From the NCBI GenBank assembly GCA_900548725.1, contig URLV01000001.1, positions 3,591 through 67,590 on the forward strand: a stretch of 64,000 bases of DNA. The letters are read 5' to 3'. The notes under the pieces are model-generated. The model searched no databases. It saw only the letters and a list, made by a program, of their open reading frames with translations, and was not told where the DNA came from. How positions within the stretch are numbered: the first letter of the stretch is position 1; each line of letters begins with the position of its first letter. The position numbers and the translations under genes are program-made. Positions 3,311 to 61,590 of the stretch are shown here, piece by piece. The DNA is from an uncultured Mycoplasmatota bacterium. Lineage in GTDB: Bacteria > Bacillota_I > Bacilli_A > RF39 > UBA660.

Positions 3311-5312
3311 TCTTATTTTTTCTCATCTGTATAGTTGCTTCATTAAATGCATCTTCTACTAATTTTAAGTCATCATTTATCATACTAAATCCCACTGCAA
3401 CACCATACTCATATGGTAATTTCTTAAATTCTTTTAATAATTTTTTAATATAACTAACAACTTGCTTTTCACTATAACCAACTAAATAAATCATAAATTC
3501 ATTACCATCAGTTCTTAAAAGTTCACTATTTTCTAACTGTGTTTTAAATAAAGCATTAGCGCAAGCTTTAATTTGCTTATCTCCTTCTTCATGTCCAAAA
3601 GTATCATTTAAATATTTTATATTATTTAAATCTAATACTATAACAGCTTGTGGATATACAGTATTTTGATTCCATATTTCCATTCTATCATTCAAATAAT
3701 TTCTATTTTTTAAACTAGTTAACATATCAACATATCTAATTTTTTCATTATTTTTTATTTTAGTATTTAATACAACTTTCTTCTTATTTCTAATAATTAT
3801 AAATATACCTATAACAATAACAATTATTAACATAATTATGTATTTAGCCAGCTTAACCGCTCTACTACCAGCTTCATAAGTTTTATAATATTTTATTAGA
3901 GCTAAATCAGTTACTTCATTAGGATTTAAAGAATTTATATAACTACTAAATAATCTATAAAAAGTATCACTATCATTTTTATAATAGAAATTATAACTAT
4001 CTCCATCAACTGTATCACTTAAAATAATATCTACATTACTAACATTATCAATAATATATGAATCATAAGTTAGCTTATCTACTAATACAACATTATTCTT
4101 CCTTAATAATTTTCTTACATCTTTATTCTTTTTATAAGTTTTAGTAACAACATTTTTATAATTACTTAAATAACTATATAAATTACTATTTTCTAAAACA
4201 TATACATCTCCATTATATGCTTTCAAACTATCAACATTAATCTTTAATTCTTTATTACTTATTAAATAATAATCTATTTTATAATTAGTATTAATTTTCT
4301 TATATTGTCCATTATAATTATTTTGTCCAAAAAATACATCTATTTTCTTCTTATCAATATCAAATTTTAAATCTTTGTATTTTCTAACTCTATTATATGT
4401 AAAATCAACATCACTAAATTTATTAAATAAAGTTAAATATTCACTTGCTATACCGCTAAATTTACCTTTACTTAATAGTTGATAAGGTTGAGAAACTATA
4501 AAATCAAATTTATAATTTTTATCAGTCAATTTATCTTCATCTTGATCACTTATATTTAAATTTTCAATGAACAAATTATAATTATTAGTATTATAACTAT
4601 CTTCATAATTTGCTTCCATCCATTGATTATAATATTTAGTTACAATAGAATTTAATACATCATCATTACCTAAATGTAAATAATAATATACTTTAGCATC
4701 ATTAAAGAAATAACATATGTTATAGCCTTTACTAATTATTTTATCTTCATACTGAATTCTAGGAACTATAATATATGAAACTTCTTTATTTTCAAAGTCC
4801 TTAAACAAATTATCCGTATTATCATAAGATTTAATTGTTCCACTCAAACTATAAAATGAACTTATATAATTTAAATCATCACTAAGGACACCTATAGTAC
4901 TATCTTTTATATCATTAATATTAGTAACGGTACTATCATCTAAACTTAATAGAACATAGTAATCTGTATAAAACAACAAATCTCTCTTATCATATGAATT
5001 ACCAACACTAAATCCAAAAGATTCATTTTTATTAGCAACAGAATACACAGAACTATTTAATTTTAAATCTAAATCTTCATCTAATTTATTTATAAAATCA
5101 AAAAACACACCATTACCATTTTTTCCAAATATATTTATATCATTAACAACGTTTATTGTATAAACACTGTTTTTATTATTACTAATCCAAGTTTTTTCAC
5201 TTATAGTTAAACTATTTTTATCTTTAAAAATTTTATAAACTCCTAATATAATACCACTTATTAGAAGCAGTGAAACAATACTAATTAATATAATCTTTTT
5301 AATTTTTTTCAT
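3282..5312 (-). CDS. membrane-anchored sensor protein with C-terminal GGDEF-type domain carrying degenerate signature (DGNEF)
   Basis: The order is an N-terminal TM, an extracytoplasmic domain of about 430 aa, a second TM (IIMLIIVIVIGIFIII), then a GGDEF fold. The GGDEF fold shows LTSLKNRNYL, VLDLNNIKYLNDTFGHEEGDKQI and RTDGNEFMI where RxGGDEF is expected. Confidence 0.6.
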   Translation of the reverse strand: MKKIKKIILISIVSLLLISGIILGVYKIFKDKNSLTISEKTWISNNKNSVYTINVVNDINIFGKNGNGVFFDFINKLDEDLDLKLNSSVYSVANKNESFGFSVGNSYDKRDLLFYTDYYVLLSLDDSTVTNINDIKDSTIGVLSDDLNYISSFYSLSGTIKSYDNTDNLFKDFENKEVSYIIVPRIQYEDKIISKGYNICYFFNDAKVYYYLHLGNDDVLNSIVTKYYNQWMEANYEDSYNTNNYNLFIENLNISDQDEDKLTDKNYKFDFIVSQPYQLLSKGKFSGIASEYLTLFNKFSDVDFTYNRVRKYKDLKFDIDKKKIDVFFGQNNYNGQYKKINTNYKIDYYLISNKELKINVDSLKAYNGDVYVLENSNLYSYLSNYKNVVTKTYKKNKDVRKLLRKNNVVLVDKLTYDSYIIDNVSNVDIILSDTVDGDSYNFYYKNDSDTFYRLFSSYINSLNPNEVTDLALIKYYKTYEAGSRAVKLAKYIIMLIIVIVIGIFIIIRNKKKVVLNTKIKNNEKIRYVDMLTSLKNRNYLNDRMEIWNQNTVYPQAVIVLDLNNIKYLNDTFGHEEGDKQIKACANALFKTQLENSELLRTDGNEFMIYLVGYSEKQVVSYIKKLLKEFKKLPYEYGVAVGFSMINDDLKLVEDAFNEATIQMRKNKNAFEDNDDK

Positions 5313-6885: not shown

Positions 6886-8868
<1,983 letters not shown>

Positions 8869-9767: not shown

Positions 9768-11849
9768 CTATAATTTACTAATACTTTTATGATTTTTCAT
9801 TAATTTTTTTACTCCACTTTTAAATGCAACATCTATCAAATCACCATTCATATTTACTACAACACCAGTACCCAAACTTTCATGACTAATGATATCACCT
9901 ATTTTAATTTCTGCATTTTCACTCTTGTTATACATTTTTTTAGTATCAATTTTCTTTTCTACTTTGACACCCGCATCATTTTCTTCAATACAATTGCTAT
10001 CGATTTCATCTATAAATCTACTAGGCATATTCATAGTATCTTTACCATATAACATTCTTCTTTTAGCGTTAGTGATATATAATCTTTCTCTAGCTCTTGT
10101 AATACCAACATAACACAAACGTCTCTCTTCTTCAATACCATTTTCCATCAAACTCATTGTATGTGGAAATAATCCTTCTTCCATACCAATTAAGAAAACA
10201 ACATCAAACTCTAAACCTTTAGCACTATGTATAGTCATCAAAGTAACTTCATCACCATCTTCTTTATGACTAGACATATCACTTATCAAACTTATTTCTT
10301 CCAAGAACTCACCTAAACTAACCATACCAGTTCTCTCTTCAAACGAAGCAGTAATACTTTTAAATTCCATCAAGTTATCAAGTCTTAATTCATTTTCTAA
10401 TGTTTTATCTTCTTCTAATTCACGTCTCAAACCAGTCTTAGTTAAAACACTATCAATTAATTCTGTTAAACTCATATTATTGCTATCATTAACTAAATCA
10501 GTTATTAAATTCTTAAATTCAATTTCTTTATTAGTAGATAAAGCATCAAACATACTTATACCTTCTAACATACTAACATTCTCTAAATTTTTAATAGCAG
10601 CATCTCCTATACCACGTTTAGGAACATTAATGATTCTTCTTAAACTAACTTCATCATTATTATTATATATAAGTCTTAAATAACTAATTAAATCTTTAAT
10701 TTCTTTTCTATTATAAAAGTAATAGCTACCAACAACTTTATAAGGTATTCCTTTAGCAAGCATTCCTTCTTCAACTACACGACTTTGCGCATTTGTTCTA
10801 TAAAGTATTCCAATATCTTTTCTATCATATCCTTCATTTAAAAGCTTGTTTATTTCTTCAATAACTAGTGTTATCTCATGTTTTTCATCATAAGCTCTCA
10901 TATACTTAATCTTAATACCTTCACCCTTTTCACTCCATAATTTCAAATCTTTTCTCTCTTTATTATTTTTTATTACAGAGTTAGCAGCATTAAGTATATT
11001 ATTAGTACTTCTATAATTTTCTTCCAACTTAATAACTTTACAATCTTTATAATCTCTTTCAAAATTTAATATATTTCTATAATCAGCTTGTCTAAAAGCA
11101 TAAATACTTTGATTCATATCACCAACAACAAATATATTTTTATTCTTATTAGCAAGCAACTTAGTTAATTTATACTGTACTGGATTAGTATCCTGATATT
11201 CATCAATTAAAATATATTTATATCTATTCTGATATTGTTCTAATATATCTTTATGTTCACTAAATAATATTACAGGTTTACATAACAAATCATCAAAATC
11301 TATACTATTATTCTTAATCATTTTATCTAAATATATATGATAAACTTCTTTAACAACTAAATCTATATCAGTATTAAAACACTTTTCTATTTCCATATCA
11401 CTTAACATCTGACTTTTAATTAAACTAATTTTATTTCTTATATAATAAGGACTATAATGTTTAGGATCTAAATTCTTATCTTTAAGAATCTTTTTTATTA
11501 TACTTAAAACATCATCACTATCTATTATAGTAAAGTTTTTATCTAATCCTAAATACATATAATTTTCTCTTATTATTCTAAGACCAAACGAATGAAATGT
11601 CCCTATAAAACTAGATATATCATATCCAAATATTTTATTAACTCTTTCTTTCATTTCTTTAGCAGCTTTATTTGTAAATGTTATTGCAAGTATATTATAA
11701 TCTCTTATTCCATTTTCAATTAAATATGCAATTCTAGTAGTAAGTACTTTAGTTTTACCACTACCAGCACCAGCCATTACTAAGCATGGGCCATCTATAT
11801 GTTTAACAGCTTCTATCTGTTGTTTATTTAAATTATTTAATAGTTCCAT
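9768..11849 (-). CDS. pcrA: ATP-dependent DNA helicase PcrA (UvrD family)
   Basis: It has Walker A AGAGSGKT, a DExQD-like IDEYQDTN, and UvrD C-terminal motifs (VTLMTIHSAKGLEFDVVFL, YVGITRA). It sits adjacent to ligA, as in Firmicutes. Confidence 0.92.
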   Translation of the reverse strand: MELLNNLNKQQIEAVKHIDGPCLVMAGAGSGKTKVLTTRIAYLIENGIRDYNILAITFTNKAAKEMKERVNKIFGYDISSFIGTFHSFGLRIIRENYMYLGLDKNFTIIDSDDVLSIIKKILKDKNLDPKHYSPYYIRNKISLIKSQMLSDMEIEKCFNTDIDLVVKEVYHIYLDKMIKNNSIDFDDLLCKPVILFSEHKDILEQYQNRYKYILIDEYQDTNPVQYKLTKLLANKNKNIFVVGDMNQSIYAFRQADYRNILNFERDYKDCKVIKLEENYRSTNNILNAANSVIKNNKERKDLKLWSEKGEGIKIKYMRAYDEKHEITLVIEEINKLLNEGYDRKDIGILYRTNAQSRVVEEGMLAKGIPYKVVGSYYFYNRKEIKDLISYLRLIYNNNDEVSLRRIINVPKRGIGDAAIKNLENVSMLEGISMFDALSTNKEIEFKNLITDLVNDSNNMSLTELIDSVLTKTGLRRELEEDKTLENELRLDNLMEFKSITASFEERTGMVSLGEFLEEISLISDMSSHKEDGDEVTLMTIHSAKGLEFDVVFLIGMEEGLFPHTMSLMENGIEEERRLCYVGITRARERLYITNAKRRMLYGKDTMNMPSRFIDEIDSNCIEENDAGVKVEKKIDTKKMYNKSENAEIKIGDIISHESLGTGVVVNMNGDLIDVAFKSGVKKLMKNHKSISKL

Positions 11850-11964
11850 ATTCTACCTCACATATTAATTATTATATCAAATATCAATCTATTATTAAAT
11901 ACCTTTTTTTATAAAATAAAAACATTTGTTCACAAAAAAACTACAAAGTTGTAGTTCTATTATT

Positions 11965-13137
11965 TTAGTTTTCTAAAGATTTCTTTAATTCTAAAATATA
12001 CTGTATTCTAAGATTTATTTGATAAATTATTTTATCTATTCTTTCTTTTGATATCAATTTATTTTTTGAAAGTATATTTTTGACCTCATCAGTAAAATTT
12101 TCTAATTTAGAAACATCAAACCAATCCAAATTTTTTACTAATCTAATTTGAGTTTTTTCGTAATCATCAAAAGGTTTTGTTAAAAAGAATTCCCCTACAT
12201 ACATATCATTTTCATCATACCACAAAGAACATCCATTATCGAATATTGGAGCAACACCTACAAATTCTAAAGTATTAACATCTCTTATAACACCAAAATT
12301 ATTAAAATGTCTATCTTTATTTGCAATTATAAAATCACATACTATCATTTTATTTATTAAAGTTTCTGCATCTTTAAGTCCTAACTTATTTAAACAATTT
12401 AAATAATGGGTATATTTATTTTCATCATTTATAAATTCAAAAAAATCATTTATTTTCCAAGCAGGAACTAATTCTGTATCCTTTGTAATAAAATTTTTAC
12501 ATTTTGATATAGCTCTCTCATTATCATAAATTACACTATACGAAACATATTCGTTTTTATTCAACAATCTTTCATAAAGTTTAGTAGCAATTAACTCATT
12601 AAAAGGTTCTTGATTATAAATCTTACTTCCAGCTTTCAATAAATATCTATCTCCATCTATTATTTTCCATCTTTTTTCATAATTACCATTACTTGTCATA
12701 TCAGGAGTATTCAAATTCAACTTCAAAGATGTTTTACCACCACTAAATAATATTTTACCTATATCTTCGGAAAACTCATTATCAAAAAAATTAATTTTCT
12801 CCCACTTTATATCTTCATCAATACTCTTTACCCAATATTGGTCTGATAAAGAAAGACAATAAGCTTTTGAATCTAACAAATCAAAATTATCTTTATCATA
12901 AATATAACTATTATGCAAAACTTCTTTTAAACCATTTCTAGACGCTGGAATTTGTCTATTCTTCCACCATTTATTAAATTCTACTTTATTTATTTCATTG
13001 TTTTTTATTAAACCAAATGGTGCATAATCTTCATTTAAAGGATAATTTCTTTCAAAATCAACAATAATATGTTGTTCTTCATCATAAATAAAATCAAATA
13101 TTTTTTTATTTTTATTCATTAACGTAAATTTCGCCAA
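11965..13137 (-). CDS. HipA-like serine/threonine kinase family protein (no adjacent HipB)
   Basis: The C-terminal region IIANKDRHFNNFGV...APIFDNGCSL resembles the HipA_C catalytic and Mg-binding motifs, which in HipA read ..D.H.KNFS.. and ..AP.YD... Confidence 0.45.
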   Translation of the reverse strand: MAKFTLMNKNKKIFDFIYDEEQHIIVDFERNYPLNEDYAPFGLIKNNEINKVEFNKWWKNRQIPASRNGLKEVLHNSYIYDKDNFDLLDSKAYCLSLSDQYWVKSIDEDIKWEKINFFDNEFSEDIGKILFSGGKTSLKLNLNTPDMTSNGNYEKRWKIIDGDRYLLKAGSKIYNQEPFNELIATKLYERLLNKNEYVSYSVIYDNERAISKCKNFITKDTELVPAWKINDFFEFINDENKYTHYLNCLNKLGLKDAETLINKMIVCDFIIANKDRHFNNFGVIRDVNTLEFVGVAPIFDNGCSLWYDENDMYVGEFFLTKPFDDYEKTQIRLVKNLDWFDVSKLENFTDEVKNILSKNKLISKERIDKIIYQINLRIQYILELKKSLEN

Positions 13138-13222
13138 GATTGCACCTCTTTCTAAATTACATCTAACAATATTATATCATACAATCCTAATAAAATAGAC
13201 TTTATAGTTATTTTTATATAAT

Positions 13223-14575
13223 TTATTTAAATTCTTTTTTTATACATCTTTCAATATTCTCCTTTATATTAGACAAATAATATTTTCTCATATCATCTAA
13301 AATATAACCAATAACTTCAAAAGAAACTTCTCTTTGATTTCTATCAGTAGTATCAATTAAATAAAAATTAATATCTTCCTTATTAGCCAATTCTTTCATA
13401 TTTAATAACGATTTATTATACTCATCAACATTCTTTTCATTTAAAAAGTTTCTTTTTTCAATAGATAAATTAGCATTATAATCTCTACTAATTGCAGTAA
13501 AACTATCTGTATAGGTTGCAATAACAATATTTATTTTATCTTTTATTAAAGGAATATATTCTAATTTATAATTATTATAATTTTTTAAATCTAATTCATC
13601 TTTTAAAAATAATCTATCTACCCATATTAATCTATCAAAAAGTGACCTATCAACAATTATAATATCATTATTACATTCAATTGTTTCATTCAACTGTTTC
13701 AAAACATATTTTGGTATTTCAAAATTGACTGTACTAGTATAATAATTTTTTAACTTAGGATATATATTTTTCTTATAATTATCAGAAGTAGTAAACTCCT
13801 CTAAAATATCAACACTAAATTTACCTTTTTTAAAAAAATCTTTCAAATTATTTATTAATGTAGTTTTTCCAGTTCTAGGTGTACCAGTAAACTCTATAAC
13901 ATATGGTTTAAAATTAAATATAGTAGATAATTTTTTAATCTCTTGTTTTTGATAATGTATCTTTTTCAACATTTTAATTTCTTTTTCATTATCTTTAAAC
14001 ACATTATCTAGTATCTCAAAATTATTAACGTCACCAAAAATTTCATCAATTAAATTTTTTAATTTTTTAAACATTTCAAAATTTTCATCTTCATTTAATA
14101 TTAAACTATCATAAAGTGAAGTAAAATACCACTTTTGTTTTTCATATCCTCTATTAAAATTTGAAAAATCATATTTACCATTTTTTTCAAACACTATTTG
14201 TAAGTCTTCTAAATTCGATATTTTATCAGCACAAACAACTGACTTATGTCTAATATCTAATGTTTTAACTTCATCTATTGTATATTGTTTTCTTTCTTCC
14301 CAAGATAATTTTTTATCTGGTTCACTATCACCCATTACAAGTGATAAAATATCTTCTCCAAATTCTTTTAATATATCTTTATCCTCATATTTAGTATCTT
14401 CAACTACATCATGCAAATAACCCGCAGCTATAACATTATCATCAAAATCATATTCACTCAAAATATTTGCAACATTAATCGGATGAATAATCATAGATTT
14501 ATCTCTTTCATTTTTTCTTACTTGTCCATAATGTGCATTTATTGCAAATAATTTTGCCTTTTCTTTTATATCCAT
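13223..14575 (-). CDS. fusion protein: N-terminal SpoT/Rel-type HD (p)ppGpp hydrolase (small alarmone hydrolase) + C-terminal P-loop nucleoside/nucleotide-kinase-like domain
   Basis: The N-terminus reads AINAHYGQVRKNERDKSMIIHPINVANILSEYDFDDNVIAAGYLHDVVEDT...VVCADKISNLEDL, a RelA/SpoT hydrolase HD signature. The C-terminus has Walker A FTGTPRTGKTTLINNL and a DRSLFDRLIW motif resembling the ERS motif of the dNK/thymidylate-kinase family. Confidence 0.6.
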   Translation of the reverse strand: MDIKEKAKLFAINAHYGQVRKNERDKSMIIHPINVANILSEYDFDDNVIAAGYLHDVVEDTKYEDKDILKEFGEDILSLVMGDSEPDKKLSWEERKQYTIDEVKTLDIRHKSVVCADKISNLEDLQIVFEKNGKYDFSNFNRGYEKQKWYFTSLYDSLILNEDENFEMFKKLKNLIDEIFGDVNNFEILDNVFKDNEKEIKMLKKIHYQKQEIKKLSTIFNFKPYVIEFTGTPRTGKTTLINNLKDFFKKGKFSVDILEEFTTSDNYKKNIYPKLKNYYTSTVNFEIPKYVLKQLNETIECNNDIIIVDRSLFDRLIWVDRLFLKDELDLKNYNNYKLEYIPLIKDKINIVIATYTDSFTAISRDYNANLSIEKRNFLNEKNVDEYNKSLLNMKELANKEDINFYLIDTTDRNQREVSFEVIGYILDDMRKYYLSNIKENIERCIKKEFK

Positions 14576-14652
14576 ACTACCACCATCACTATCAAATTAA
14601 TTATACAATATACTTTATAATTATCAAAAAAACAACCACCATAGGCAGTCAT

Positions 14653-14958
14653 CTAAATATTATAATTTATTAAATCATCTATAGAATTATTTAATAAATA
14701 TAAAAGCATGTTTTTATCTAATTTAGTAAAATTTTGCTTAACTAATGATAATGGTAAGAAAAATAAATCTATTCTATTTTTAATAACATTATAAATATCT
14801 TCCACACCAAAATCTTTTAAATATTTTATAATTTCTTTAACGTTTCTCTTAGAAAAATTTAAATTCTTAAGAAGAACATTATCATAAGTATTAATTATAT
14901 CTTTAATCTGATCATCACTTAAATCATATTCTTTGAGATAACTTAACACTTTCCTCAC
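14653..14958 (-). CDS. hypothetical protein (101 aa), operon member
   Basis: ORF track. The gene overlaps its upstream neighbour by 35 nt. No motif was recognised. Confidence 0.35.
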   Translation of the reverse strand: MRKVLSYLKEYDLSDDQIKDIINTYDNVLLKNLNFSKRNVKEIIKYLKDFGVEDIYNVIKNRIDLFFLPLSLVKQNFTKLDKNMLLYLLNNSIDDLINYNI

Positions 14959-15598
14959 CCATTTCTAATAGAGGTCTTACTGCATTAATAACTTCTTCTA
15001 TATTTGCTACATTATTTTTATATTTTAAACAACTAACAAATATATCCAAGTCTTTTTCTTTCCCTCTATAATTACATAAATTACGTAAAACTCTTTCTCT
15101 ACTAACTACATGTACTCCAAAAGAATAAGTTCCTTCTTTATTTAAGTATTTGTTATCAAGCTCTGAAACTATGTTCTTTATTACATTATGGTCATTAAAG
15201 AAATTTTCTAAACGTACTTCATCAAAGTTTTCATTAACAAACATTTTATTAAGTAAAACCTCTTCATCAGACGAAGTACTATCTATTTTACCATAAAGTG
15301 ATTTATCTTTGCAAGTTTTTGCTTCTCCATAAGTTTTTTGTATGTTAAGACCTCTGATAAAATCAATATTATCTAAACTTACTCCATCACTTTTTTTCCA
15401 TAATCCTTTTTCTATTAAATAATCTAATCTATCACTTAAAGATTGCATACCAAGTATCACATAACCATTGTTATTATTATCATTAGTTAAACTAATACCG
15501 TATCTACTTAAAACATGAATGTTGTCAAAAATAACATTAGGTTTAGTTACTAAAACACCACCAACATGTTCTAAAACATTTTTACATATTGCCCCCAC
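14924..15598 (-). CDS. hypothetical protein (224 aa), operon member
   Basis: ORF track. Its start overlaps the stop of the upstream gene. No motif was recognised. Confidence 0.4.
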   Translation of the reverse strand: MGAICKNVLEHVGGVLVTKPNVIFDNIHVLSRYGISLTNDNNNNGYVILGMQSLSDRLDYLIEKGLWKKSDGVSLDNIDFIRGLNIQKTYGEAKTCKDKSLYGKIDSTSSDEEVLLNKMFVNENFDEVRLENFFNDHNVIKNIVSELDNKYLNKEGTYSFGVHVVSRERVLRNLCNYRGKEKDLDIFVSCLKYKNNVANIEEVINAVRPLLEMGEESVKLSQRI

Positions 15599-16512
15599 TA
15601 ATTATCAACCTCCACGCTATTAAGTTTATCAACTAATCCTTTATTAATATTATAATCATTAACAAAGAAAACATCAAAATTAAGCATTTTCTTAAAATCA
15701 ACATTATTTTCTTTTATCAAATTATAATTATTAACAAAATTATCATAATTACACATAACACAATTATATTTACATTTACTATTAACTAAATCTTTAATAA
15801 ATATAGAAGGTATATTACTTACTACTTTATTAATATTTGCATGTTCATTTTCAAATATCTTTATTATATCATTTACATTATCTAAATTAGAATGTAACAT
15901 AATACTAATTAAAACATTTTTATCCTCTAACTTATCAAATAAAACCCTTTTCATTCCATTATCAGTTTTTATATTAATAGCAAAACTTTTAAATTTTTCT
16001 AAATCAACATATTTACTTAAATCATTTAATAAATCTTTATCTATATCATTTTCATTAATTTCCAAATAATCAAGTATATCTTTTAATTTAACATCAATAT
16101 TATCAAAATTAATATCAGAAGAAATAGGTATATCTTGAGATTTAACTTTCTTATTCATCAAATAAATATTATATCTATTTAAATTAAGCATAATATCATA
16201 CATAATAAAATCTATACCCTTATTTATATTATTAACAATGTCTTTTAGATAACCATCAACATTATCTCTAGTTGTATCATATTTTTCTTTTAAATATTCA
16301 TCTAATACACTACCTATATCACATCCAGTAACTATCCTACTAACTTCTTTATAGTTAGTAATATATTGAATTTTTTCTGTACGATTTTTAACACCATTTA
16401 AAATACTAATAATATTTTCTATATCTTTTAATGAATTTTTATCGTGTTCTTTATTTTCTTCACATTTTTTAAACATAGAAAAATATTCTAGTAATACATC
16501 AATAAATTCCAA
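15598..16512 (-). CDS. hypothetical protein (304 aa) with C-terminal CKYNCVMCNYD cysteine cluster, operon member
   Basis: ORF track, with 1-nt overlap to the next gene. The cluster has four Cys within 9 residues near the C-terminus. Confidence 0.4.
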   Translation of the reverse strand: MEFIDVLLEYFSMFKKCEENKEHDKNSLKDIENIISILNGVKNRTEKIQYITNYKEVSRIVTGCDIGSVLDEYLKEKYDTTRDNVDGYLKDIVNNINKGIDFIMYDIMLNLNRYNIYLMNKKVKSQDIPISSDINFDNIDVKLKDILDYLEINENDIDKDLLNDLSKYVDLEKFKSFAINIKTDNGMKRVLFDKLEDKNVLISIMLHSNLDNVNDIIKIFENEHANINKVVSNIPSIFIKDLVNSKCKYNCVMCNYDNFVNNYNLIKENNVDFKKMLNFDVFFVNDYNINKGLVDKLNSVEVDN

Positions 16513-16523
16513 AATATTACCTC

Positions 16524-17486
16524 CTAACTTTCAATTTTTTTAATAACATCATAACTATCTACTAATTCAAGTAAATCTTTTAAATTTTTCTCTATTTTTA
16601 AAGCATCACTATCTTTATCTTCCTTAAGCATTTCTTTAGTTTCTTTATAAATTTTATTCATTGTATCTAAAATAGGAACTTTTTGATATTTAACTAACAT
16701 ATCATTATTTAAATTCATTTTCTCTATTTGTTCATCATCATAATCTAATATTTCTAATGAGGTTTTAATAATCTCATCAGTTATATTATTAATTAAATTT
16801 TTTTCTCTAATCAAAATACTTTCTACAAAAGATAATATTTCTTCATCACTATACTCTATAACATCATTTTTTTTATCGGCTTCACTTTTTCTAGCAAAGT
16901 CAATATTCTTTTCGCCTATATATTCCAATATTTGCCATTTTTCACTAGTAATAATTCCACTTTTTTTAAGAACTTCATTAAATTCTTCTATATCATATAT
17001 AGGTTTAATTAATTTATCATTCTTAAAATAACTTATATACTTTTTATATAAATTATTACTTATCTTCAAACTATTATAATATTCTTTATTATTATTATTA
17101 AAATCTTTAATATACTCTTTAATATATTTTATTTGTTCATCAAGCCAACTAATATATGATTCTATCTGTTCTTTATTGCTAACATTTATTTCTCCATCAC
17201 TTACTAGTTTTTGATTAACTTTTATACTAACTGTTGCATTAAAGAAAATTTTCATTTTTTCTTCTTTGTCATCAAAATTAAATACGTCTAATATTTTCAT
17301 AAAGTCATCTTTATCAAGTAAGGCCAAATCCTCCCCTTTTAAATCATCTATATCCTTTAACGTTTTCAATGTAAGCATATTTTTAACATCAGTTATTCTA
17401 TCCATCTTACTTTGAAAATCTTTTAACTGCTCATCAACAGTATCTATTTTCTTAGATAACTCTGTTATAAAGGAATTGATATACAT
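16524..17486 (-). CDS. hypothetical coiled-coil-rich protein (320 aa), first gene of operon
   Basis: ORF track. The RBS is GGAGG. The promoter TTGTTT-N17-TATACT lies upstream on the minus strand. Confidence 0.45.
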   Translation of the reverse strand: MYINSFITELSKKIDTVDEQLKDFQSKMDRITDVKNMLTLKTLKDIDDLKGEDLALLDKDDFMKILDVFNFDDKEEKMKIFFNATVSIKVNQKLVSDGEINVSNKEQIESYISWLDEQIKYIKEYIKDFNNNNKEYYNSLKISNNLYKKYISYFKNDKLIKPIYDIEEFNEVLKKSGIITSEKWQILEYIGEKNIDFARKSEADKKNDVIEYSDEEILSFVESILIREKNLINNITDEIIKTSLEILDYDDEQIEKMNLNNDMLVKYQKVPILDTMNKIYKETKEMLKEDKDSDALKIEKNLKDLLELVDSYDVIKKIES

Positions 17487-18325: not shown

Positions 18326-18547
18326 CTATTTTAATTTTTTTACAAATCTAGCTACTAAAACATCATCATAAATTGAAGAAAACGTTTCAGCATCAAAGTT
18401 AACTATATCGCCATTTCTAACATAGTTATATAATATATCTTTTTTCATTAATAAATATTTTTTTATATTTACTTTATTAAAATTATTAAGTTCAATTATA
18501 GTTCCTACATTTCCATCATAATCTTTTATTATTCCTATTTTTTTCAT
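18326..18547 (-). CDS. hypothetical small protein (73 aa), overlaps the 3' end of the 1419-aa gene by 32 nt
   Basis: ORF track. The arrangement is a translationally coupled small ORF after a giant gene. Confidence 0.35.
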   Translation of the reverse strand: MKKIGIIKDYDGNVGTIIELNNFNKVNIKKYLLMKKDILYNYVRNGDIVNFDAETFSSIYDDVLVARFVKKLK

Positions 18548-21500
18548 AACTAACTCCCATTATTTTATTTTTTACTTGATTCATTTCATCACATACAAAT
18601 TCTTTATTAAAACCTCTATCAATTATAAATTCATCTAATATATTACCAAATTCATCAAATACTATATACCAATCTTCTCCTAAATACATAGAAGATATTA
18701 AATTTTTATAACCACAACTCTCATTATAAATTTGTATATCTGAAATATCTTTACCACAAACAATATCGTTAATCATTCTAATTTTATCAATTTCATTTAT
18801 TATTTCATATACATTGTTAATTAATTTAACTGGCTGTCTACTAACATCATATAGTGTTTCTTTATTATCAGTTAGTTTAATAGATGTTAAATTACCACGG
18901 CTTGTTGCTAGTACAATTGCACATGAATTAACATCAGAATAGAAATTTGATGATAATCCTTTCTTTATGTCATCACAATGTATATTAGTTATTTTATCTG
19001 TGTAAGAACGCATTGAAAAACCATCAGAAATAACCACATTATCAATAGGAATTTCATCAACTTTAGTTTTATCGATTAACATTTTTGAAAATTTTTCTAA
19101 AGCATCTATTAAATCAACGGCATCATACTTTGAATCTACACTATATCTAAGTTGATTTAAAAATATAGTATTTCCATTTCTAAATCCACTAACTCTACTA
19201 ACGAAATTACCTGTATCACTCATAAATTTTATATGAAAACCATTAACATCAGTTAAGCAAAATCTAAATAAACTATCAGCATGTCCCTTAATTCTCATAC
19301 AAGCACCTGTTCTTTCACCCATAGTTAGATTTGTCATATCAGTACTATTTGTAATTTGTACATTTATTTTTTTATTATTAATTTCAATATTTTCATTAAG
19401 TGGTGGAACACTTATTTTTTCTCTTTTATACATTTCTTTAATTAGAGCAACAGAATCATTTAATCTAACTTCACTTCTATAAGGAGCCGAATTTGGCCCA
19501 GGATTACTTTTAATTAATTTAAAATCTTCTTTTCCCAACAATTTAGTATATTTATAAGAAGTACTAGCATATATCAAAGCTTCATTTAATAAACTAGTTA
19601 AAGTAATACTTCTTTCAGTTGTTATACCATTCATTTTTCTTTCATCATTCATATGTCGATTCTGTTCAAGTAAATTAGGATAAATTCTATAAAAATTATT
19701 TAAGAATGAACATATAGTATCTTTATCTATATCCAAATCAACTTCATTAGATAAATCACTAAAAGTGTTACCCCAACCAATAAGTTTATATTTTCTCAAC
19801 AAATTTAATAAATCATTATATAAAACATCATTATTTAATAAATTATCTTTCAATAAATTTATATTCATATTGCTCAATACTGAAACTGTATCTTCTTTAG
19901 AGTAAGGTATATTATACAACTTCTTACAATCTATACAAATAAATTTATAACTATTTTTATTTAAATAAAATTTATCCATAAGATTACTAAAAATTTTCAT
20001 CAGCTGTAATACTTCGTTTTTGTTTTCAATCTTTTCACCTTTTTTAAGTAATACTATATTTTTTAATAAATTTTCATTATCTAATAATTCTTTCTCTTCC
20101 AAAGTTAAATTATTTACATCAATTCTCTTTAAGTAATAAATTATAGTTTCAACATCTTTTGTTTTAATCCATTCTCTTATAAATGAATTTTTTTCATAAG
20201 TTTCTTCCAATTTTAAATTTTCTTTACTTTTATTAAAATTATTTTTAACAAATTCATTTCTCTTTTCTAAAATATATTTATTAGTAAATATATTTAAAAT
20301 TTCTAAATTACTATTAATTTTATTTACATCATATAAATCTTTAATAAATTCATCAACTTTTTTATAATTATATTTTTTTAGTGTATTAGAAATATAATTA
20401 GTATCTTCAATCACAATATCTTTTAATTTAGAATCGCATAAATAATAACTTATTTCATCAATTTCTTTAAACAAATCTTTAAAATTACCAGAAATTAAAT
20501 AATTTCTAATTCTATTAAATATTCCTAATATATTTCTATTATTTAGAGTAAATTTTTTCTGTAATAATACACTTAATACATTATCTATATGTTGTTCATT
20601 GGTTAATATCATTTCTTGTACATTAAACATATTCATTATCTTTTTATAATTATTATCATCTAAATTCAATAAATTAATAATATTTTCACTATTTAAAAAT
20701 CTATAAACAACATTACCATATTTACTAATTAAATCAACTAAGTGATTATAAGAACATTTATAATACTCACTATAATATTTAACAACTTCTTCATCTAAAC
20801 TACCATGATTAATAAAATCATCATCATGCATAAAATTATTTATATAATCGATTCCTAAATGATACTTAATAGCATATTTAATTTTTAAATTAACATCTTT
20901 AAATGAATCTATAAATTGTTGTATAGATATATTATCATTTGCACCTAATTCAAAAAATTTATCTAAAAACTCTATTTTATATTCATCACTTATTCCAGTT
21001 ATATTAGTTAGAATTTGTAAAGCTTTTGTTTTAGAATTAACATAAATTTTTTCTATACATTCTTTCTTTTTATCTTCACTATGAATTGAGTTCAAAAACA
21101 TGATATAATCATTTTTCTCTTTAAAATTATATTTATTTAGCAAATATAATTTATAATTATCATATTCTTTATCCTTAAAACAAATCACTAATTTAGGAAA
21201 AAAGCTATCTTCTAAATTATCAACATTATTTTCAATTATTTTTAATAAATCAATTTTAATAGAATAATTTTCAACAGAAATTAAAATATTTTCAAAATAT
21301 TGTACCAATTTAATTGTATCAGGATATAAAAAATTATTAAAGTTATCTACAATAAATTTAGTATTAATTTCATTTATTGATAATGAACTTATTAGTTTAC
21401 TTATTTCTAAATCATCCAAATCAAAACTATTGTTTATAATGTATTTTCTCTTATTATCATCATTAAATTTTTCTAATATTTCCAATAATATTTTATCATC

Positions 21501-22775
21501 TAAAATATATTTAATTTTATTATCATTTCTAACATAATTTATAATTTCAATTTTTAAATCATCGTTACCCAAACTTTTAATTAACTCAATTTTCAGATAA
21601 GGATCAATATCACTGTTTTTAATAATTTTAATTTTATTATCATCACTTAACTTTTCTAAAACAAGCCAATCTTCTGAAAATATTAAGGGTAAAACGTTAC
21701 TTTTTTTTATAGATAAATATATATTAAGCTTAATTTTTTCATCTTTAATAGAATATAATATTTTTTTTCTGAAACTTTCAAACAATTTTTCATTTTTAAC
21801 AATTAAAACTTTTATATCATCAGGCATTTCTAAAAAACTATTACTTTCAATATAACCTTTTTTATTCAATTCTATCATGTAATCAATTAAAGTATTATCT
21901 AAATTATAAGTTTTATAAATATATTTATCATAAAAAATACTAACAACATCATATTTGTTTAAATATTTTTCATAATTAATATTTTTTAATACTTCTAATA
22001 TTTCATCTAAATTTAAATATTCTAATGTATCGCAAATGTCATTCGAATTTAATTTTTCCAATAAAATTTCATTTTTTAGCAGTTGAATTTTATCATTATT
22101 ATTAAAACTTTCCATAGCTTGTCTAATAACACTACTATAAATATTAATATCTTTATCCAAAACAATTTTTTTAAACTTATCCAAATCAGCATTTTGTAAA
22201 ATAATATTAAAACAATTCTTACTAATTTTATTATTTTTTAAATATTTTATTTGATTATCTAAACTCATAGAAGAAATAACTTGAGCTATTACATTAGAAC
22301 TTTTATAATCATTAATCATTTTTTGTTTTTCACCATCAGTCAAAGTATTTAAATATAAAGAAGTATGATTATACTTATTCAAATTTTCTTTTTTCATCTC
22401 TTCATTTTTAAAAGACATAATTAAATATTCTGATAAATCATTATCATATTTCATTAAATGTAAAAAACTATTTTTTTCATCATCAGTTAATCCAAATAAA
22501 GAAATATAATATCTATCAACATCATCAAAATACAAATACTCATTACTTATACTATTTAATATTTTTTTACTTTCTTCACGACTAAAAATATTAGATAAAA
22601 ACATTACTACATCTTTAGTATATTTTAAACGTTCTTCTAAAATATCATTATATTCTATGATATTATCAACAAATTGTAATCTATCAGAAAAAGAATAATT
22701 ATCAATAAAATAATTAGTATTGCTATTGTTTTTAATTTCATTAATTATTTTCTCTAAATCACTTTTCTTTATCAT
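18516..22775 (-). CDS. giant hypothetical protein (1419 aa), cytoplasmic (no signal peptide or TM), N/K/I-rich helical N-terminal 1000 aa and a Cys/His-containing C-terminal domain
   Basis: It is an uninterrupted 4.26-kb ORF. No known motifs were recognised. The C-terminus has ..TMGERTGACMRIKGHADSLFRFCLTDVNGFH.. Confidence 0.5.
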   Translation of the reverse strand: MIKKSDLEKIINEIKNNSNTNYFIDNYSFSDRLQFVDNIIEYNDILEERLKYTKDVVMFLSNIFSREESKKILNSISNEYLYFDDVDRYYISLFGLTDDEKNSFLHLMKYDNDLSEYLIMSFKNEEMKKENLNKYNHTSLYLNTLTDGEKQKMINDYKSSNVIAQVISSMSLDNQIKYLKNNKISKNCFNIILQNADLDKFKKIVLDKDINIYSSVIRQAMESFNNNDKIQLLKNEILLEKLNSNDICDTLEYLNLDEILEVLKNINYEKYLNKYDVVSIFYDKYIYKTYNLDNTLIDYMIELNKKGYIESNSFLEMPDDIKVLIVKNEKLFESFRKKILYSIKDEKIKLNIYLSIKKSNVLPLIFSEDWLVLEKLSDDNKIKIIKNSDIDPYLKIELIKSLGNDDLKIEIINYVRNDNKIKYILDDKILLEILEKFNDDNKRKYIINNSFDLDDLEISKLISSLSINEINTKFIVDNFNNFLYPDTIKLVQYFENILISVENYSIKIDLLKIIENNVDNLEDSFFPKLVICFKDKEYDNYKLYLLNKYNFKEKNDYIMFLNSIHSEDKKKECIEKIYVNSKTKALQILTNITGISDEYKIEFLDKFFELGANDNISIQQFIDSFKDVNLKIKYAIKYHLGIDYINNFMHDDDFINHGSLDEEVVKYYSEYYKCSYNHLVDLISKYGNVVYRFLNSENIINLLNLDDNNYKKIMNMFNVQEMILTNEQHIDNVLSVLLQKKFTLNNRNILGIFNRIRNYLISGNFKDLFKEIDEISYYLCDSKLKDIVIEDTNYISNTLKKYNYKKVDEFIKDLYDVNKINSNLEILNIFTNKYILEKRNEFVKNNFNKSKENLKLEETYEKNSFIREWIKTKDVETIIYYLKRIDVNNLTLEEKELLDNENLLKNIVLLKKGEKIENKNEVLQLMKIFSNLMDKFYLNKNSYKFICIDCKKLYNIPYSKEDTVSVLSNMNINLLKDNLLNNDVLYNDLLNLLRKYKLIGWGNTFSDLSNEVDLDIDKDTICSFLNNFYRIYPNLLEQNRHMNDERKMNGITTERSITLTSLLNEALIYASTSYKYTKLLGKEDFKLIKSNPGPNSAPYRSEVRLNDSVALIKEMYKREKISVPPLNENIEINNKKINVQITNSTDMTNLTMGERTGACMRIKGHADSLFRFCLTDVNGFHIKFMSDTGNFVSRVSGFRNGNTIFLNQLRYSVDSKYDAVDLIDALEKFSKMLIDKTKVDEIPIDNVVISDGFSMRSYTDKITNIHCDDIKKGLSSNFYSDVNSCAIVLATSRGNLTSIKLTDNKETLYDVSRQPVKLINNVYEIINEIDKIRMINDIVCGKDISDIQIYNESCGYKNLISSMYLGEDWYIVFDEFGNILDEFIIDRGFNKEFVCDEMNQVKNKIMGVSYEKNRNNKRL

Positions 22776-22865: not shown

Positions 22866-23303
22866 CTAGTAAACACTAATATTTTTATTTTCTCTTTTCA
22901 AATCACGTTCCTTAATACTTTCTCTTTTATCATATAATTTTTTACCCTTACATAATCCAAGAAGTACTTTAGCATAATTTCCTTTAAAATATAATTTAAG
23001 TGGTATCAAACTATATCCATCTTTCATTACTTCACTTTTCAATTTAACAATTTCATTTCTTTTTAATAAAAGTTTTCTTTCTCTTCTTTCAGGAACATTA
23101 TATCTATTCCCCTCTTCATAAGGAGCAATATACATATTTATAATAAATACTTCACTATTTTTAATTCTAGCATATGTGTCTTTTAGATTAGTACTACCTT
23201 TTCTAATTGATTTAATTTCTGTACCAGATAAAACTATACCACATTCAATTTCTCTTTCAATAAAATAATCAAAATATGCTTTTCTATTCTTTATCTCCAT
23301 CAT
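22866..23303 (-). CDS. smpB: SsrA-binding protein SmpB (start at internal ATG with RBS GGTGGGGGA)
   Basis: The sequence KNRKAYFDYFIEREIECGIVLSGTEIKSIRKG...YNVPERRERKLLLKRNEI is canonical SmpB. It overlaps the rnr stop by about 20 nt. Confidence 0.9.
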   Translation of the reverse strand: MMEIKNRKAYFDYFIEREIECGIVLSGTEIKSIRKGSTNLKDTYARIKNSEVFIINMYIAPYEEGNRYNVPERRERKLLLKRNEIVKLKSEVMKDGYSLIPLKLYFKGNYAKVLLGLCKGKKLYDKRESIKERDLKRENKNISVY

Positions 23304-25398
23304 TTTTATCCCCCACCAACTCAAAATCAATAGTTCTAGCTTCTTTGCTAGCACCTACAACCTTTACACGTACTTTATCACCTAAAGTATAACGTTTCTT
23401 AGTATTCTGTCCAATCAAGCATAATAGTTCTTCAACATAATTATAGTAATCCCCCTTTAAACTATTTACATGAACCAAACCTTCAATTAAATTATCTAAT
23501 TCAACAAATAATCCAAAAGATTCTACACCACTTATAACACCATCATACTCTTCTCCAATATGTTTTTCCATATATTCAGCCATTTTCATGTCATCAACTT
23601 CACGTTCTGCATCAACACTAGCTTGTTCTCTTTCACTAGCTTGTCCAGCAATATAATCTAAGTTAGCGTTATAATAATCAATAGTTTCATTATCAATTTT
23701 ATTTTCATATAAATATTTTCTTAACAATCTATGAACTTCTAAATCAGGATAACGTCTAATAGGTGATGTAAAATGAGTATAACATTTGCTGCCCAATCCA
23801 AAGTGTCCTATATTATCTTTTTGATATACAGCCTTTCTCATACTACGTAATAACATACTAGAAAGTATTTTATATTGAGGAACATCTTTTAATTGATTTA
23901 ATAATTTTTGCATACTTACTGGAGTGAAATCTTTAACTTTTCCATTAACTTTATATCCAAGTAAACTAACTAATTTTAAAAATTTATCAATCTTATCAGC
24001 ATTTGGGACATCATGAACTCTATAAATAAATGGTAAATCCATATTATAAATGTGTGTTGCAACTGTTTCATTAGCAGCAATCATAAAATCTTCAATCATA
24101 CGTTCTGCATCTTCTCTAACTCTTTTTTCTATTCCAACAACATTTTTATCTTCATCAACAATAATCTTTGCCTCATCTAAATCAAAATCTATATATCCTC
24201 TTTTGATTTTATTTCTACGTAATATATGAGCTAACTCATTCATTTGTTTTAATACATCACCAAATTTCTCATAACTAGAATCAACAATATTACGCATAAT
24301 AATATCATTAACTTTCTTATAAGTCATTTTCTTTCTAGATTTTATAAATGATGGAAATATATCATAATCTACAACGTTACCTTCGTTATTTATTTTCATA
24401 ACGCAAGATTGTGTAAGTCTAACAACTCCTTCATTCAAAGAACAAATACCATTTGATAATTTATGAGGAAGCATAGGTATAACACTATCTGCCAAATAAG
24501 AACTAGTACCGCGACTTAAAGCATCTTTGTCAAGATAACTATTTTCAGTAACATAGTATGAAACATCTGCAATATGAACTCCTAAAACATGTAACCCATT
24601 TTCAAATTTATAACTAATTGCATCATCTATATCCTTAGTATCATCACCATCAATTGTAAAAATTACTTCATTAGTTAAATCTGTTCTTCCCTTTAATTCA
24701 TTATCACTTACAACATTAGGTATAGCATCTGTTTGTTCCATTGCTTTATTACTAAATTCTTCATAAATATTATATTTATAAGCGACTAACTTAATATCAA
24801 CACCAGGATCATCTTTATGACCAATAACTGTTGTTACTCTACCCATATACTTATTCTTAGACATCTCTTTAGTTATGCTAACAATAACTTTAGTACCTTC
24901 TACTAAACCATTAGTACTCTTAGAATCTAATTTTATATCTAACTTTTTATTCTTATCTTCCAACTTGACAAAAGGTTTGTTATCAACAAAATATATTTCA
25001 CCTATCAAATTACTTAAATCTCTATTTAAAACTCTAAGTACTCTACCTTCAGTTTTACCATGATTATTAATTATTTCAACTAATACTCTATCATCATTAA
25101 CAGCACCATTAATATTATCTTTATCAATATATATATCTTCCCCATCTTTAATAATTAGAAAACCAAATCCTTTTTTATTCAAAGATAATATACCTGCTTT
25201 TAAACTAGGACAATTCTTAAATAAAATATACTTATTCTTTTTAGTTTTATAAACAACACCATCTTTTTCTAATTCACATAAAACATTATTTAATCTACTT
25301 AAATCTTCTGGACTAGTTAATTCCAATAGATCATTAATTTCTATAACATCAAGTGCCTCATATCTATCACTCATTACATTAATTATTTGTTCTTTCAT
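23284..25398 (-). CDS. rnr: ribonuclease R
   Basis: It has an RNB catalytic domain (HFGLGSKCYTHFTSPIRRYPDLEVHR), cold-shock domains, and a C-terminal S1 with a lysine-rich tail. Length is 704 aa. Confidence 0.9.
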   Translation of the reverse strand: MKEQIINVMSDRYEALDVIEINDLLELTSPEDLSRLNNVLCELEKDGVVYKTKKNKYILFKNCPSLKAGILSLNKKGFGFLIIKDGEDIYIDKDNINGAVNDDRVLVEIINNHGKTEGRVLRVLNRDLSNLIGEIYFVDNKPFVKLEDKNKKLDIKLDSKSTNGLVEGTKVIVSITKEMSKNKYMGRVTTVIGHKDDPGVDIKLVAYKYNIYEEFSNKAMEQTDAIPNVVSDNELKGRTDLTNEVIFTIDGDDTKDIDDAISYKFENGLHVLGVHIADVSYYVTENSYLDKDALSRGTSSYLADSVIPMLPHKLSNGICSLNEGVVRLTQSCVMKINNEGNVVDYDIFPSFIKSRKKMTYKKVNDIIMRNIVDSSYEKFGDVLKQMNELAHILRRNKIKRGYIDFDLDEAKIIVDEDKNVVGIEKRVREDAERMIEDFMIAANETVATHIYNMDLPFIYRVHDVPNADKIDKFLKLVSLLGYKVNGKVKDFTPVSMQKLLNQLKDVPQYKILSSMLLRSMRKAVYQKDNIGHFGLGSKCYTHFTSPIRRYPDLEVHRLLRKYLYENKIDNETIDYYNANLDYIAGQASEREQASVDAEREVDDMKMAEYMEKHIGEEYDGVISGVESFGLFVELDNLIEGLVHVNSLKGDYYNYVEELLCLIGQNTKKRYTLGDKVRVKVVGASKEARTIDFELVGDKNDGDKE

Positions 25399-61233: not shown

Positions 61234-61590
61234 TGGTGGAGCCGGTGAGAATTGAACTCACGTCCAAAATACTTTCTTATCCAACATCTACAAGTTTAGT
61301 TAGAACAAATTATTCATTAATAAAAAAGAGTCTAACAATCCTATTTATTAATATAGTTTATAAATATTCATCAATTATCCTAAACAAAACAATTGATATA
61401 TCTTATATATATGAACCCTAATCAAATCTATAAGCAAATAAGATTAAAGTGCTTTATTGCCAAATTAGGCAAATGCTAAAGCGTTATTATTAAATGTTTT
61501 GTCAGTTAATTTAAACTGGTTGCTAATTAAGGGATAGCACACCACTTGCAGTTAGATAGAAACATATCCTGTCGAAACCATTACGACCCC
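61234..61590 (-). ncRNA. ssrA: tmRNA (ssrA), tag (A)DKTFNNNALAFA
   Basis: The 5' end is GGGGTCGTAATGGTTTCGACAGGA. The 3' tRNA-like end is GGACGTGAGTTCAATTCTCACCGGCTCCACCA. The tag reading frame is UAACU-GAC AAA ACA UUU AAU AAU AAC GCU UUA GCA UUU GCC UAA, which parallels the B. subtilis layout. Confidence 0.85.

Follow-up and report, generated by a model that had tools for sequence, protein, structure and literature searches.

The fusion gene and its hydrolase half

We analysed a 64-kb stretch of DNA (the window) from an uncultured Mycoplasmatota bacterium, with a focus on the minus-strand gene at 13223..14575. The gene encodes a single protein of 450 amino acids (aa) in which a predicted small alarmone hydrolase (SAH) domain is followed by a kinase-like P-loop domain, a combination pointed out in an earlier note on this DNA, from which the strand was missing. 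One open reading frame (ORF) spans both parts and matches the Pfam families HD_4 and AAA_28, which is far more than chance would give, and more than 1000 homologues carry both halves. The motifs quoted in the note are all present (GYLHDVVEDT, aa 52–61; GTPRTGKTT, aa 231–239; DRS, aa 309–311), as are the residues it held essential, the HD His/Asp pairs and the Walker A lysine; both catalytic sets are intact. The gene and its parts are as follows.

13223..14575, minus strand: SAH-kinase fusion ORF, 450 aa plus stop, ATG start (ORF list and sequence, Pfam HD_4 and AAA_28, AlphaFold2 model)
14021..14575, minus strand: predicted SAH domain, RelH/MixSpo type, aa 1–185 (phmmer against the PDB, Foldseek)
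14393..14413, minus strand: HDVVEDT, aa 55–61, with HD metal ligands H55/D56 and catalytic E59/D60 (read directly)
13910..14020, minus strand: linker and long N-terminal helix of the kinase module, aa 186–222, helix at 197–217 (DSSP on the model)
13226..13909, minus strand: predicted P-loop kinase core, aa 223–450, deoxynucleoside kinase/thymidylate kinase superfamily fold, AAA_28 (profile against the PDB, Foldseek, BFVD)
13862..13885, minus strand: Walker A motif GTPRTGKT, aa 231–238 (read directly)
13796..13798, minus strand: E260, the Glu past strand 2 (invariant in 25 diverse family members and 95 fusions; aligns to 'kEPve' of 2jas)
13622..13651, minus strand: DRSLFDRLIW, aa 309–318, comprising DRS (Walker B-like Asp and catalytic Arg), D314 and W318 (aligns to 'DRTLLED' of 2jas)
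13451..13486, minus strand: LID-like segment RDYNANLSIEKR, aa 364–375, with R364 and R375 (R364 aligns to the LID Arg of 2jas)
14600..14627, minus strand: promoter-like TTGATA-16-TATAAT, about 25 nt 5' of the ATG
14630..14654, minus strand: terminator-like hairpin and T-run closing the upstream gene

The ATG is preceded by a Shine-Dalgarno sequence, GGTGGT (read directly). The promoter-like site is the best of its region (11 of 12 matches); the evidence for a promoter is weak, because the total of such sites in this AT-rich region is not above that in shuffled sequences. The terminator-like site is the sole one in 11800..15100, where 0.2 are expected from shuffles. With a promoter-like site of its own and a hairpin closing the gene upstream, the fusion gene looks like a separate transcription unit. 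The exact 450-aa protein is present in public collections, in a 113-member cluster at 90% identity.

The N-terminal half matches Pfam HD_4 (PF13328) over aa 10–126 (E 1.7e-14; 54.3 bits against a gathering cutoff of 27.2). Its best relative in the PDB by phmmer is Listeria monocytogenes Lmo0812 (4yf1; E 6.9e-35 over aa 4–171), followed by Mesh1, RelH and the hydrolase domains of Rel/SpoT. The hydrolase motif residues H31 (HP motif), H55, D56, E59, D60, D117, N121 (ADKISNL) and R20/K21 all occur in the protein, and an alignment of 95 fusion homologues shows each of them conserved in 90% or more. We presume their roles (metal ligands, catalytic pair, substrate contacts) by analogy with Rel and Mesh1. 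Both Lmo0812 and RelH have been assigned to MixSpo (RelH), one of the SAH families (PMC10434055).

Structure gives the same picture. The AlphaFold2 model of the fusion protein, built from an input alignment of 95 fusion sequences of 39–88% identity, has a mean predicted local distance difference test score of 91.4 and a predicted template-modelling score (pTM) of 0.90, which together indicate two well-defined domains in a fixed arrangement. In a Foldseek search of the PDB, the N-terminal half superimposes on 4yf1 with a TM-score (TMt) of 0.87–0.91 and a root-mean-square deviation of 1.5 Å at 38–39% identity, and on 7qoc with a TMt of 0.87; further fold matches include RelH (7qod, 7qoc, 7qoe), Mesh1, a Pseudomonas aeruginosa SAH and Rel/SpoT hydrolase domains. 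The SAH assignment made in the note thus holds by sequence and by fold (E 7e-35 to 4yf1, TM 0.87–0.91), and the N-terminal half is an SAH-family domain with a complete set of metal-binding and catalytic residues.

The closest characterised SAHs (Corynebacterium glutamicum RelH, 7qod; L. levettii, 7qoe; Lmo0812, 4yf1) share the fold, the sequence family and the conserved His, Asp and Glu-Asp residues. They are stand-alone proteins of about 180–200 aa, whereas the fusion bears a rigidly attached 255-aa kinase module. The long RelA/SpoT homologues (RSH; Rel/SpoT) have a homologous hydrolase domain (E 1e-13 to 1e-9) and resemble the fusion in adding to it another catalytic domain that handles nucleotides; theirs is a (p)ppGpp synthetase of nucleotidyltransferase fold, and that of the fusion is a P-loop kinase. 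NCBIfam gives partial Rel/SpoT model matches only, far under their cutoffs (TIGR00691: 71.5 against 499), and the protein therefore has the hydrolase domain alone, with no synthetase domain. We reject an identity as a long RSH on these grounds.

The kinase half and the proposed activities

By profile and by fold, the C-terminal half belongs to a small, undescribed branch of the deoxynucleoside kinase (dNK)/thymidylate kinase (TMPK) superfamily, and the likeness to dNK and dTMP kinases drawn in the note is thereby borne out. A profile of the family finds as its best PDB match the deoxyadenosine/deoxyguanosine kinase of Mycoplasma mycoides (2jas/2jaq; E 4e-8, from the P-loop to the LID); the TMPKs 2pbr and 5xbh rank next (about 2e-6), and signal recognition particle GTPases match around the P-loop only. 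In the alignment with 2jas, E260 falls on the Glu of 'EP', DRS on DRT and R364 on the LID Arg. We take E260 to be the candidate general base, after the role of the dNK Glu with which it aligns. Foldseek matches of the half in the PDB include Giardia deoxyadenosine kinase (dAK; 8puu) and M. mycoides 2jat/2jas (TMt 0.60–0.66, probability 1.00), the TMPKs of vaccinia (2v54) and Thermotoga maritima (3hjn; TMt up to 0.75), deoxycytidine kinase (dCK) and Drosophila dNK. Among viral predicted structures (BFVD), the kinase half finds viral dNKs and dTMP kinases; no BFVD protein spans both halves, which yield the same two groups of matches as in the PDB.

The kinase motif residues are invariant across the 95 fusion proteins, including the whole Walker A motif, R364, D365, Y366, E373 and R375, and so are K210 and E212 of the N-terminal helix. 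This helix belongs to the kinase module, being found also in stand-alone family members (alignment of 25 diverse members). Across those 25, G231, G236, K237, F247, E260, D309, R310, D314, W318 and R364 are invariant, and the motif set of the family reads GTPR(T/A)GKT, EE(F/P), DR(S/G)xxDxxxW and RDY...E.R. A search with aa 195–450 against 1.84 billion cluster representatives (E ≤ 1e-3) matched only 428 clusters, and the family is therefore small. In Pfam, the fusion matches AAA_28 over aa 227–325 (E 1.7e-6; 28.8 bits against a cutoff of 27, a marginal score), with weak generic P-loop matches besides.

Compared with dNKs (M. mycoides dAK/dGK 2jas/2jaq/2jat, Giardia dAK 8puu, human dCK, Drosophila dNK), the kinase half has the same fold, with the P-loop, the Glu past strand 2, DRS (ERS or DRT in dNKs) and the LID Arg in register, at only 16–22% identity. 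It is unlike them in the P-loop Arg of GTPR(T/A)GKT, the invariant Trp past DRS, the RDY...E.R lid and the extra N-terminal helix. TMPKs (3hjn, 2v54, Aquifex aeolicus 2pbr) likewise share the fold (best TMt 0.75) and a DR-x motif. The TMPK P-loop carries an Asp (GxDGxGKT-type), and type I TMPKs have a P-loop Arg. The fusion has Pro in place of the TMPK Asp and an Arg as in type I enzymes; it has no Thymidylate_kin match in Pfam.

The reading that we favour, tentatively and with a little less than even confidence, is that of a soluble bifunctional enzyme of nucleotide-pool homeostasis, combining removal of an alarmone 3'-pyrophosphate with phosphorylation of a (deoxy)nucleoside or nucleoside monophosphate (NMP). 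We infer the substrates, both activities and their physiological coupling as follows. The N-terminal domain would be a metal-dependent SAH (Mn2+ by analogy with characterised SAHs) that takes the 3'-pyrophosphate off (pp)pGpp, and possibly (p)ppApp, yielding GMP, GDP or GTP and pyrophosphate (PPi). The C-terminal domain would carry out ATP-dependent phosphorylation, most likely of a (deoxy)nucleoside 5'-OH or a (d)NMP. Such a protein would clear alarmone while driving salvaged nucleosides and nucleotides back toward (d)NTP pools, and the halves may be kept together because they serve one physiological switch, exit from starvation with refilling of the (d)NTP pool by salvage.

The same two folds could also form an opposing writer and eraser, the kinase phosphorylating a ribose hydroxyl of a nucleotide to make a 3'(2')-phosphorylated signal or cofactor that the HD_4 half removes, much as the synthetase and hydrolase of Rel oppose each other. 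Fusion or operon linkage of a kinase and a phosphohydrolase is typical of opposing activities, enzymes of the SAH fold remove single 2'- or 3'-phosphates (Mesh1-NADPH and Mesh1-PAPS entries), and the kinase half has weak P-loop matches to adenosine 5'-phosphosulfate (APS) kinase. The likeness to APS kinase is, however, confined to the P-loop region, whereas over the whole domain it is to kinases of 5'-OH and 5'-phosphate groups (dNK/TMPK), and a literature search turned up no precedent. We regard this possibility as very unlikely.

Distribution of the fusion and recurrence of the pairing

The fusion is widespread in one group of gut bacteria. The full protein matches more than 1395 clusters at 90% identity, of which the best 120 all retain both domains, and 1075 proteins match a profile built on the kinase half, almost all of them with the same fusion. 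The source is gut "Bacilli/Tenericutes" metagenome-assembled genomes (MAGs); among species-representative genomes, the fusion occurs in 50 or more MAGs of uncultured gut "Bacilli" or "Tenericutes", with Clostridium sp. CAG:302 and Candidatus (Allo)scybalousia (Bacilli incertae sedis at NCBI) among the carriers. We take this clade to be probably the prevalent GTDB order RF39. RF39 has been described as genome-reduced, with many auxotrophies (PMC6784871). A phage origin was rejected, since a homologue occurs on just 1 of 2.9 million viral contigs.

The pairing could not be placed in a known family, as the note had said. Database entries call the fusion "HD domain-containing protein" only and the stand-alone kinases "AAA family ATPase", with Bacilli bacterium MAGs as the source; no curated NCBIfam model covers the fusion protein, and a full-text literature search found nothing on an SAH joined to a P-loop kinase. 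Both domains are from known superfamilies; the combination and the kinase subfamily are uncharacterised.

Outside the fusion clade, the two halves occur as neighbouring genes. In three unrelated lineages (L079/80, L082 and L085–87) an SAH gene, 43–46% identical to the N-terminal half of the fusion, lies directly 5' of a stand-alone family kinase. In L079/L080 (41% GC), a 181-aa HD_4 gene (43% identical) has TGA as its stop codon, after which come the ribosome-binding site GGAGGTGA and the ATG of a 285-aa family kinase (junction read directly). In L085–87 (32% GC; GCA_001797235.1, MGOV01000066.1, 1968..4990) the order is HD_4, kinase and an NrtR-like regulator, with a divergent CYTH gene. The HD_4 gene of L082 (29% GC) overlaps the kinase gene, which precedes a dCTP deaminase gene; this contig looks frameshift-rich. 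By way of control, no family kinase lies within 8 kb at 18 loci with the nearest stand-alone SAH relatives (Halobacillus, Oceanobacillus, Priestia, Halanaerobiales and others). Given the split neighbours in other lineages, the pairing recurs across lineages as a module and cannot be put down to faulty gene calling. The split SAH-kinase operons support a real functional link between the SAH and kinase halves. Under our preferred reading, the two activities would form a conserved functional module, fused in a low-GC clade of gut Bacilli and encoded by adjacent genes elsewhere.

The kinase family also keeps company with other phosphohydrolases. A generic HD domain is fused to a family kinase in P0140, HD and HD_4 domains in P0126, and a dNTP triphosphohydrolase of the SAMHD1/EF1143 type in P0210 (E 2.7e-18 to 2o6i); the stand-alone kinase P0143 is directly followed by a dGTPase-type gene (HD+HD_assoc). 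Some fusion loci have genes for a YfbR-like 5'-deoxynucleotidase, Ham1/RdgB or a member of the uracil-DNA glycosylase superfamily nearby. The common theme of these contexts is turnover of nucleotides, especially deoxynucleotides, with the kinase partnered by an HD-superfamily phosphohydrolase. The deoxynucleotide theme, to which the dCTP deaminase neighbour of L082 and weak NT5C-like neighbours of other members also belong, speaks for our preferred reading.

Some further contexts were recorded at these loci. In L002, a 92%-identical genome, a gene for a Ham1/RdgB non-canonical NTP pyrophosphatase (7003..7596) lies 13 nt 5' of the fusion gene; it is not at that position in the window. In one subgroup (P0176, P0178, P0182, P0184 and P0188; L076 6001..7407) an N-terminal kinase domain is followed by about 220 aa that have no Pfam or PDB match and find only phrog_8902, a phage family with no function assigned. 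A CYTH identity for the N-terminal domain of the relatives P0163 and P0179, suggested by an ExExK-like start, was rejected (no confirmation in Pfam or the PDB; best pairwise E 0.008). A role of the fusion in toxin-antitoxin function or defence was likewise set aside, as the protein has no PADLOC match, and no toxSAS–SAH pair is seen, with no RSH-like neighbour in the window and no conserved neighbour in 52 loci.

Small genes of about 150 aa encoding haloacid dehalogenase (HAD) proteins lie directly 3' of two kinase-family genes (L074, L075); they are 51% identical to each other and have weak NT5C and weak PNKP-phosphatase matches. The latter bear on a role in nucleic-acid end healing, as by HD-Pnk or T4 Pnkp, or in mending tRNAs whose 3'-CCA ends have been pyrophosphorylated by a toxic alarmone synthetase, with the HD half cleaning the 3' end and the kinase half phosphorylating the 5'-OH. 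In layout, the fusion comes nearest, among published proteins, to HD-Pnk of Runella slithyformis, a single polypeptide with the same domain order, a phosphohydrolase of the HD superfamily and then a P-loop kinase (PMC6097658). KTI12-type P-loop matches in 13 of the 25 kinase-family members also point this way, though they span the P-loop only. HD-Pnk pairs a 2',3'-phosphoesterase HD domain with a polynucleotide kinase in an operon with a ligase (PMC6097658), whereas the fusion pairs an HD_4 domain of the RSH type with a dNK/TMPK-like kinase and has no conserved ligase, Hen1 or toxSAS neighbour. Nor is there a polynucleotide kinase among its best fold or profile matches. LigA, which is encoded nearby, is the NAD-dependent ligase with housekeeping duties, and the synteny extends to two close genomes only. 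Such a function is highly improbable.

The NrtR-type regulators (Nudix plus NrtR winged helix) bear on a role in NAD(P) salvage. Orthologous regulators, 46% identical, adjoin kinase-family genes in two unrelated contexts (L085–87; L074 2195..6145). The HD_4 half would then be a Mesh1-like NADP(H) 2'-phosphatase and the AAA_28 half a ribosylnicotinamide kinase like Nrk1 or the C-terminal part of NadR. AAA_28, which we take to be the NadR ribosylnicotinamide-kinase-type domain, is the sole kinase-type Pfam family over its cutoff and matches 23 of the 25 family members, down to E 3e-15. Pfam dNK matches 4 of the 25 (best E 1e-7). The fold matches include Mesh1-NADPH and Mesh1-PAPS structures, and those in BFVD an Nrk1 and a NadR-like protein. 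Mesh1 is, however, a far more distant match of the N-terminal half (E about 1e-9 to 1e-16) than bacterial RelH/Lmo0812 is (E 7e-35), NadR is absent from the best 60 profile and best 50 fold matches while dNKs and TMPKs are among them, and no NAD genes were seen around the fusion loci. NadR shares the AAA_28 match, but the fusion is without its nicotinamide mononucleotide adenylyltransferase domain. NrtR-family regulators also control non-NAD regulons. If the clade is RF39, the description of that order as lacking pathways for several vitamins (PMC6784871) would favour salvage. We consider the NAD(P) role quite unlikely.

Several points weigh against our preferred reading of alarmone removal combined with (deoxy)nucleoside or NMP phosphorylation. 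The sole above-threshold kinase-type Pfam family of the fusion is the generic AAA_28, barely over its cutoff, and neither Pfam dNK (PF01712) nor Thymidylate_kin (PF02223) matches the fusion protein at E ≤ 1. The window holds no RSH-like neighbour, no second HD_4 gene and no alarmone synthetase. Neighbourhoods in the fusion clade vary, with no neighbour family in more than 9 of 52 loci; a conserved operon was rejected, since synteny is limited to the two closest genomes, L001 and L002. The 'coupling' may be mere co-regulation, because it is not obvious how a nucleoside kinase would use the SAH products GDP and GTP. Nor can the acceptor be read from homology, because of the P-loop Pro and the family's own motif set.

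Kinases of the TMPK superfamily have been exapted for polyphosphate (PMC12995831), a further point against our preferred reading. The kinase of the fusion could likewise handle inorganic oligophosphates, acting on PPi, triphosphate (PPPi) or polyphosphate from its HD partners as PPK2/PPK3-type enzymes do. Those partners release PPi (SAH) or PPPi (dNTPase), and the CYTH gene (triphosphate tunnel) is adjacent in one operon. The PPK2 matches are weak and stay marginal (E 0.01–0.014). The conserved Asn284 and D314 align with positions that contact the nucleoside in dNKs; the organic acceptor that they suggest also speaks against this role, which we hold to be extremely improbable.

Divergent fusions also count against two working halves. 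Among 17 full-length representatives, one per cluster at 50% identity, about 8 retain both catalytic sets, and in at least 6 the HD site is intact but Walker A or the DR motif is degenerate. A single representative lacks the ED pair with its kinase motifs in place, and another lacks both sets. The kinase domain can thus be retained without catalysis, as a mere partner, which lends some weight to a regulatory or scaffolding role. One half may be mainly a nucleotide-sensing or scaffolding switch for the other, making the protein a regulated hydrolase or a regulated kinase; this would cover the 'alarmone-regulated kinase' raised in the note. The losses in these divergent fusions, of kinase motifs in some and of the ED pair in one, and the fixed inter-domain arrangement implied by the pTM are in its favour. 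In the clade of the window's own protein, by contrast, conservation of every catalytic residue is 90% or higher, up to full invariance, over 95 sequences that reach down to about 40% identity; this holds for both halves and argues for two working active sites. We consider a one-sided switch unlikely.

A bolder claim, which we put forward as improbable, is that an SAH with an AAA_28-type kinase makes up an unrecognised module of nucleotide signalling or pool control, widespread in uncultured low-GC gut Bacilli and falling within a broader rule of an HD phosphohydrolase (SAH, dNTPase or generic HD) plus this kinase. In its boldest form, the module would be writer and eraser of a phosphorylated nucleotide independent of Rel-type synthetases; alternatively, it might couple alarmone hydrolysis mechanically to deoxynucleoside salvage. 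SAHs are treated as single-domain enzymes for clearance of (p)ppGpp and (p)ppApp, and here one is hard-wired to a kinase of the nucleoside/nucleotide type. If both halves are active, the shut-off of the stringent response would be tied directly to nucleotide salvage, and a small unannotated dNK/TMPK branch, habitually paired with HD phosphohydrolases (SAH, dNTPase), would gain its first functional context. With an assay result, more than 1000 entries named "HD domain-containing protein" or "AAA family ATPase" could be annotated better.

Other features of the window

The window is ordinary chromosomal DNA. Its G+C content is about 22%, GC skew is strongly negative, and the minus strand holds most genes, among those of the window being ligA, pcrA, smpB, RNase R, bipA, ackA, htpG, murD and the genes for tRNA-Cys and tmRNA. 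The presence of murD and femAB indicates a cell wall.

Between the fusion gene and pcrA lies a gene for a 390-aa HipA_C-like protein (11965..13137, minus strand; weak Pfam match, E 3e-5), which matches the PADLOC candidate defence family PDC-M03A (E 1.3e-18). The gene is absent in the near-identical genome L001 and present only as a remnant in L002, and is thus a strain-variable insertion; a link to the fusion gene was rejected. On the 5' side of the fusion gene, four consecutive ORFs (14653..17486, minus strand; 101, 224, 304 and 320 aa) have no Pfam family, a sub-threshold mTERF match of the 101-aa ORF being the only Pfam signal of the four. They are kept only in L001 and L002.

A 1419-aa ORF without a Pfam family (18516..22775, minus strand) has no counterpart in the otherwise syntenic L001 and L002, in which just some 300 nt separate smpB from a lipocalin-like gene; the ORF resembles a strain-specific insertion of 4.3 kb. 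The GC skew turns positive at 42–46 kb. The segment 42027..47027 holds a plus-strand 977-aa ORF without any Pfam family and, at 46122..47027, a fragment of a TrwB-like coupling protein, and may be the remnant of an integrated mobile element.

Other minus-strand genes encode an Abi_2 abortive-infection-like protein (902..1768; E 3e-41) and a 676-aa GGDEF diguanylate cyclase (3282..5312), from which the organism probably uses cyclic di-GMP signalling. A homologue of the sporulation protease YabG (peptidase U57) is encoded at 62886..63659 (minus strand), and a related low-GC contig has YabP and YqfD genes (L078 10561..11279), which hints that these reduced-genome gut Bacilli retain sporulation genes. 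The tmRNA gene lies at 61234..61590 (minus strand) with the predicted tag peptide DKTFNNNALAFA; smpB, the tmRNA partner, lies 38 kb away at 22866..23354 (minus strand), adjoining RNase R.

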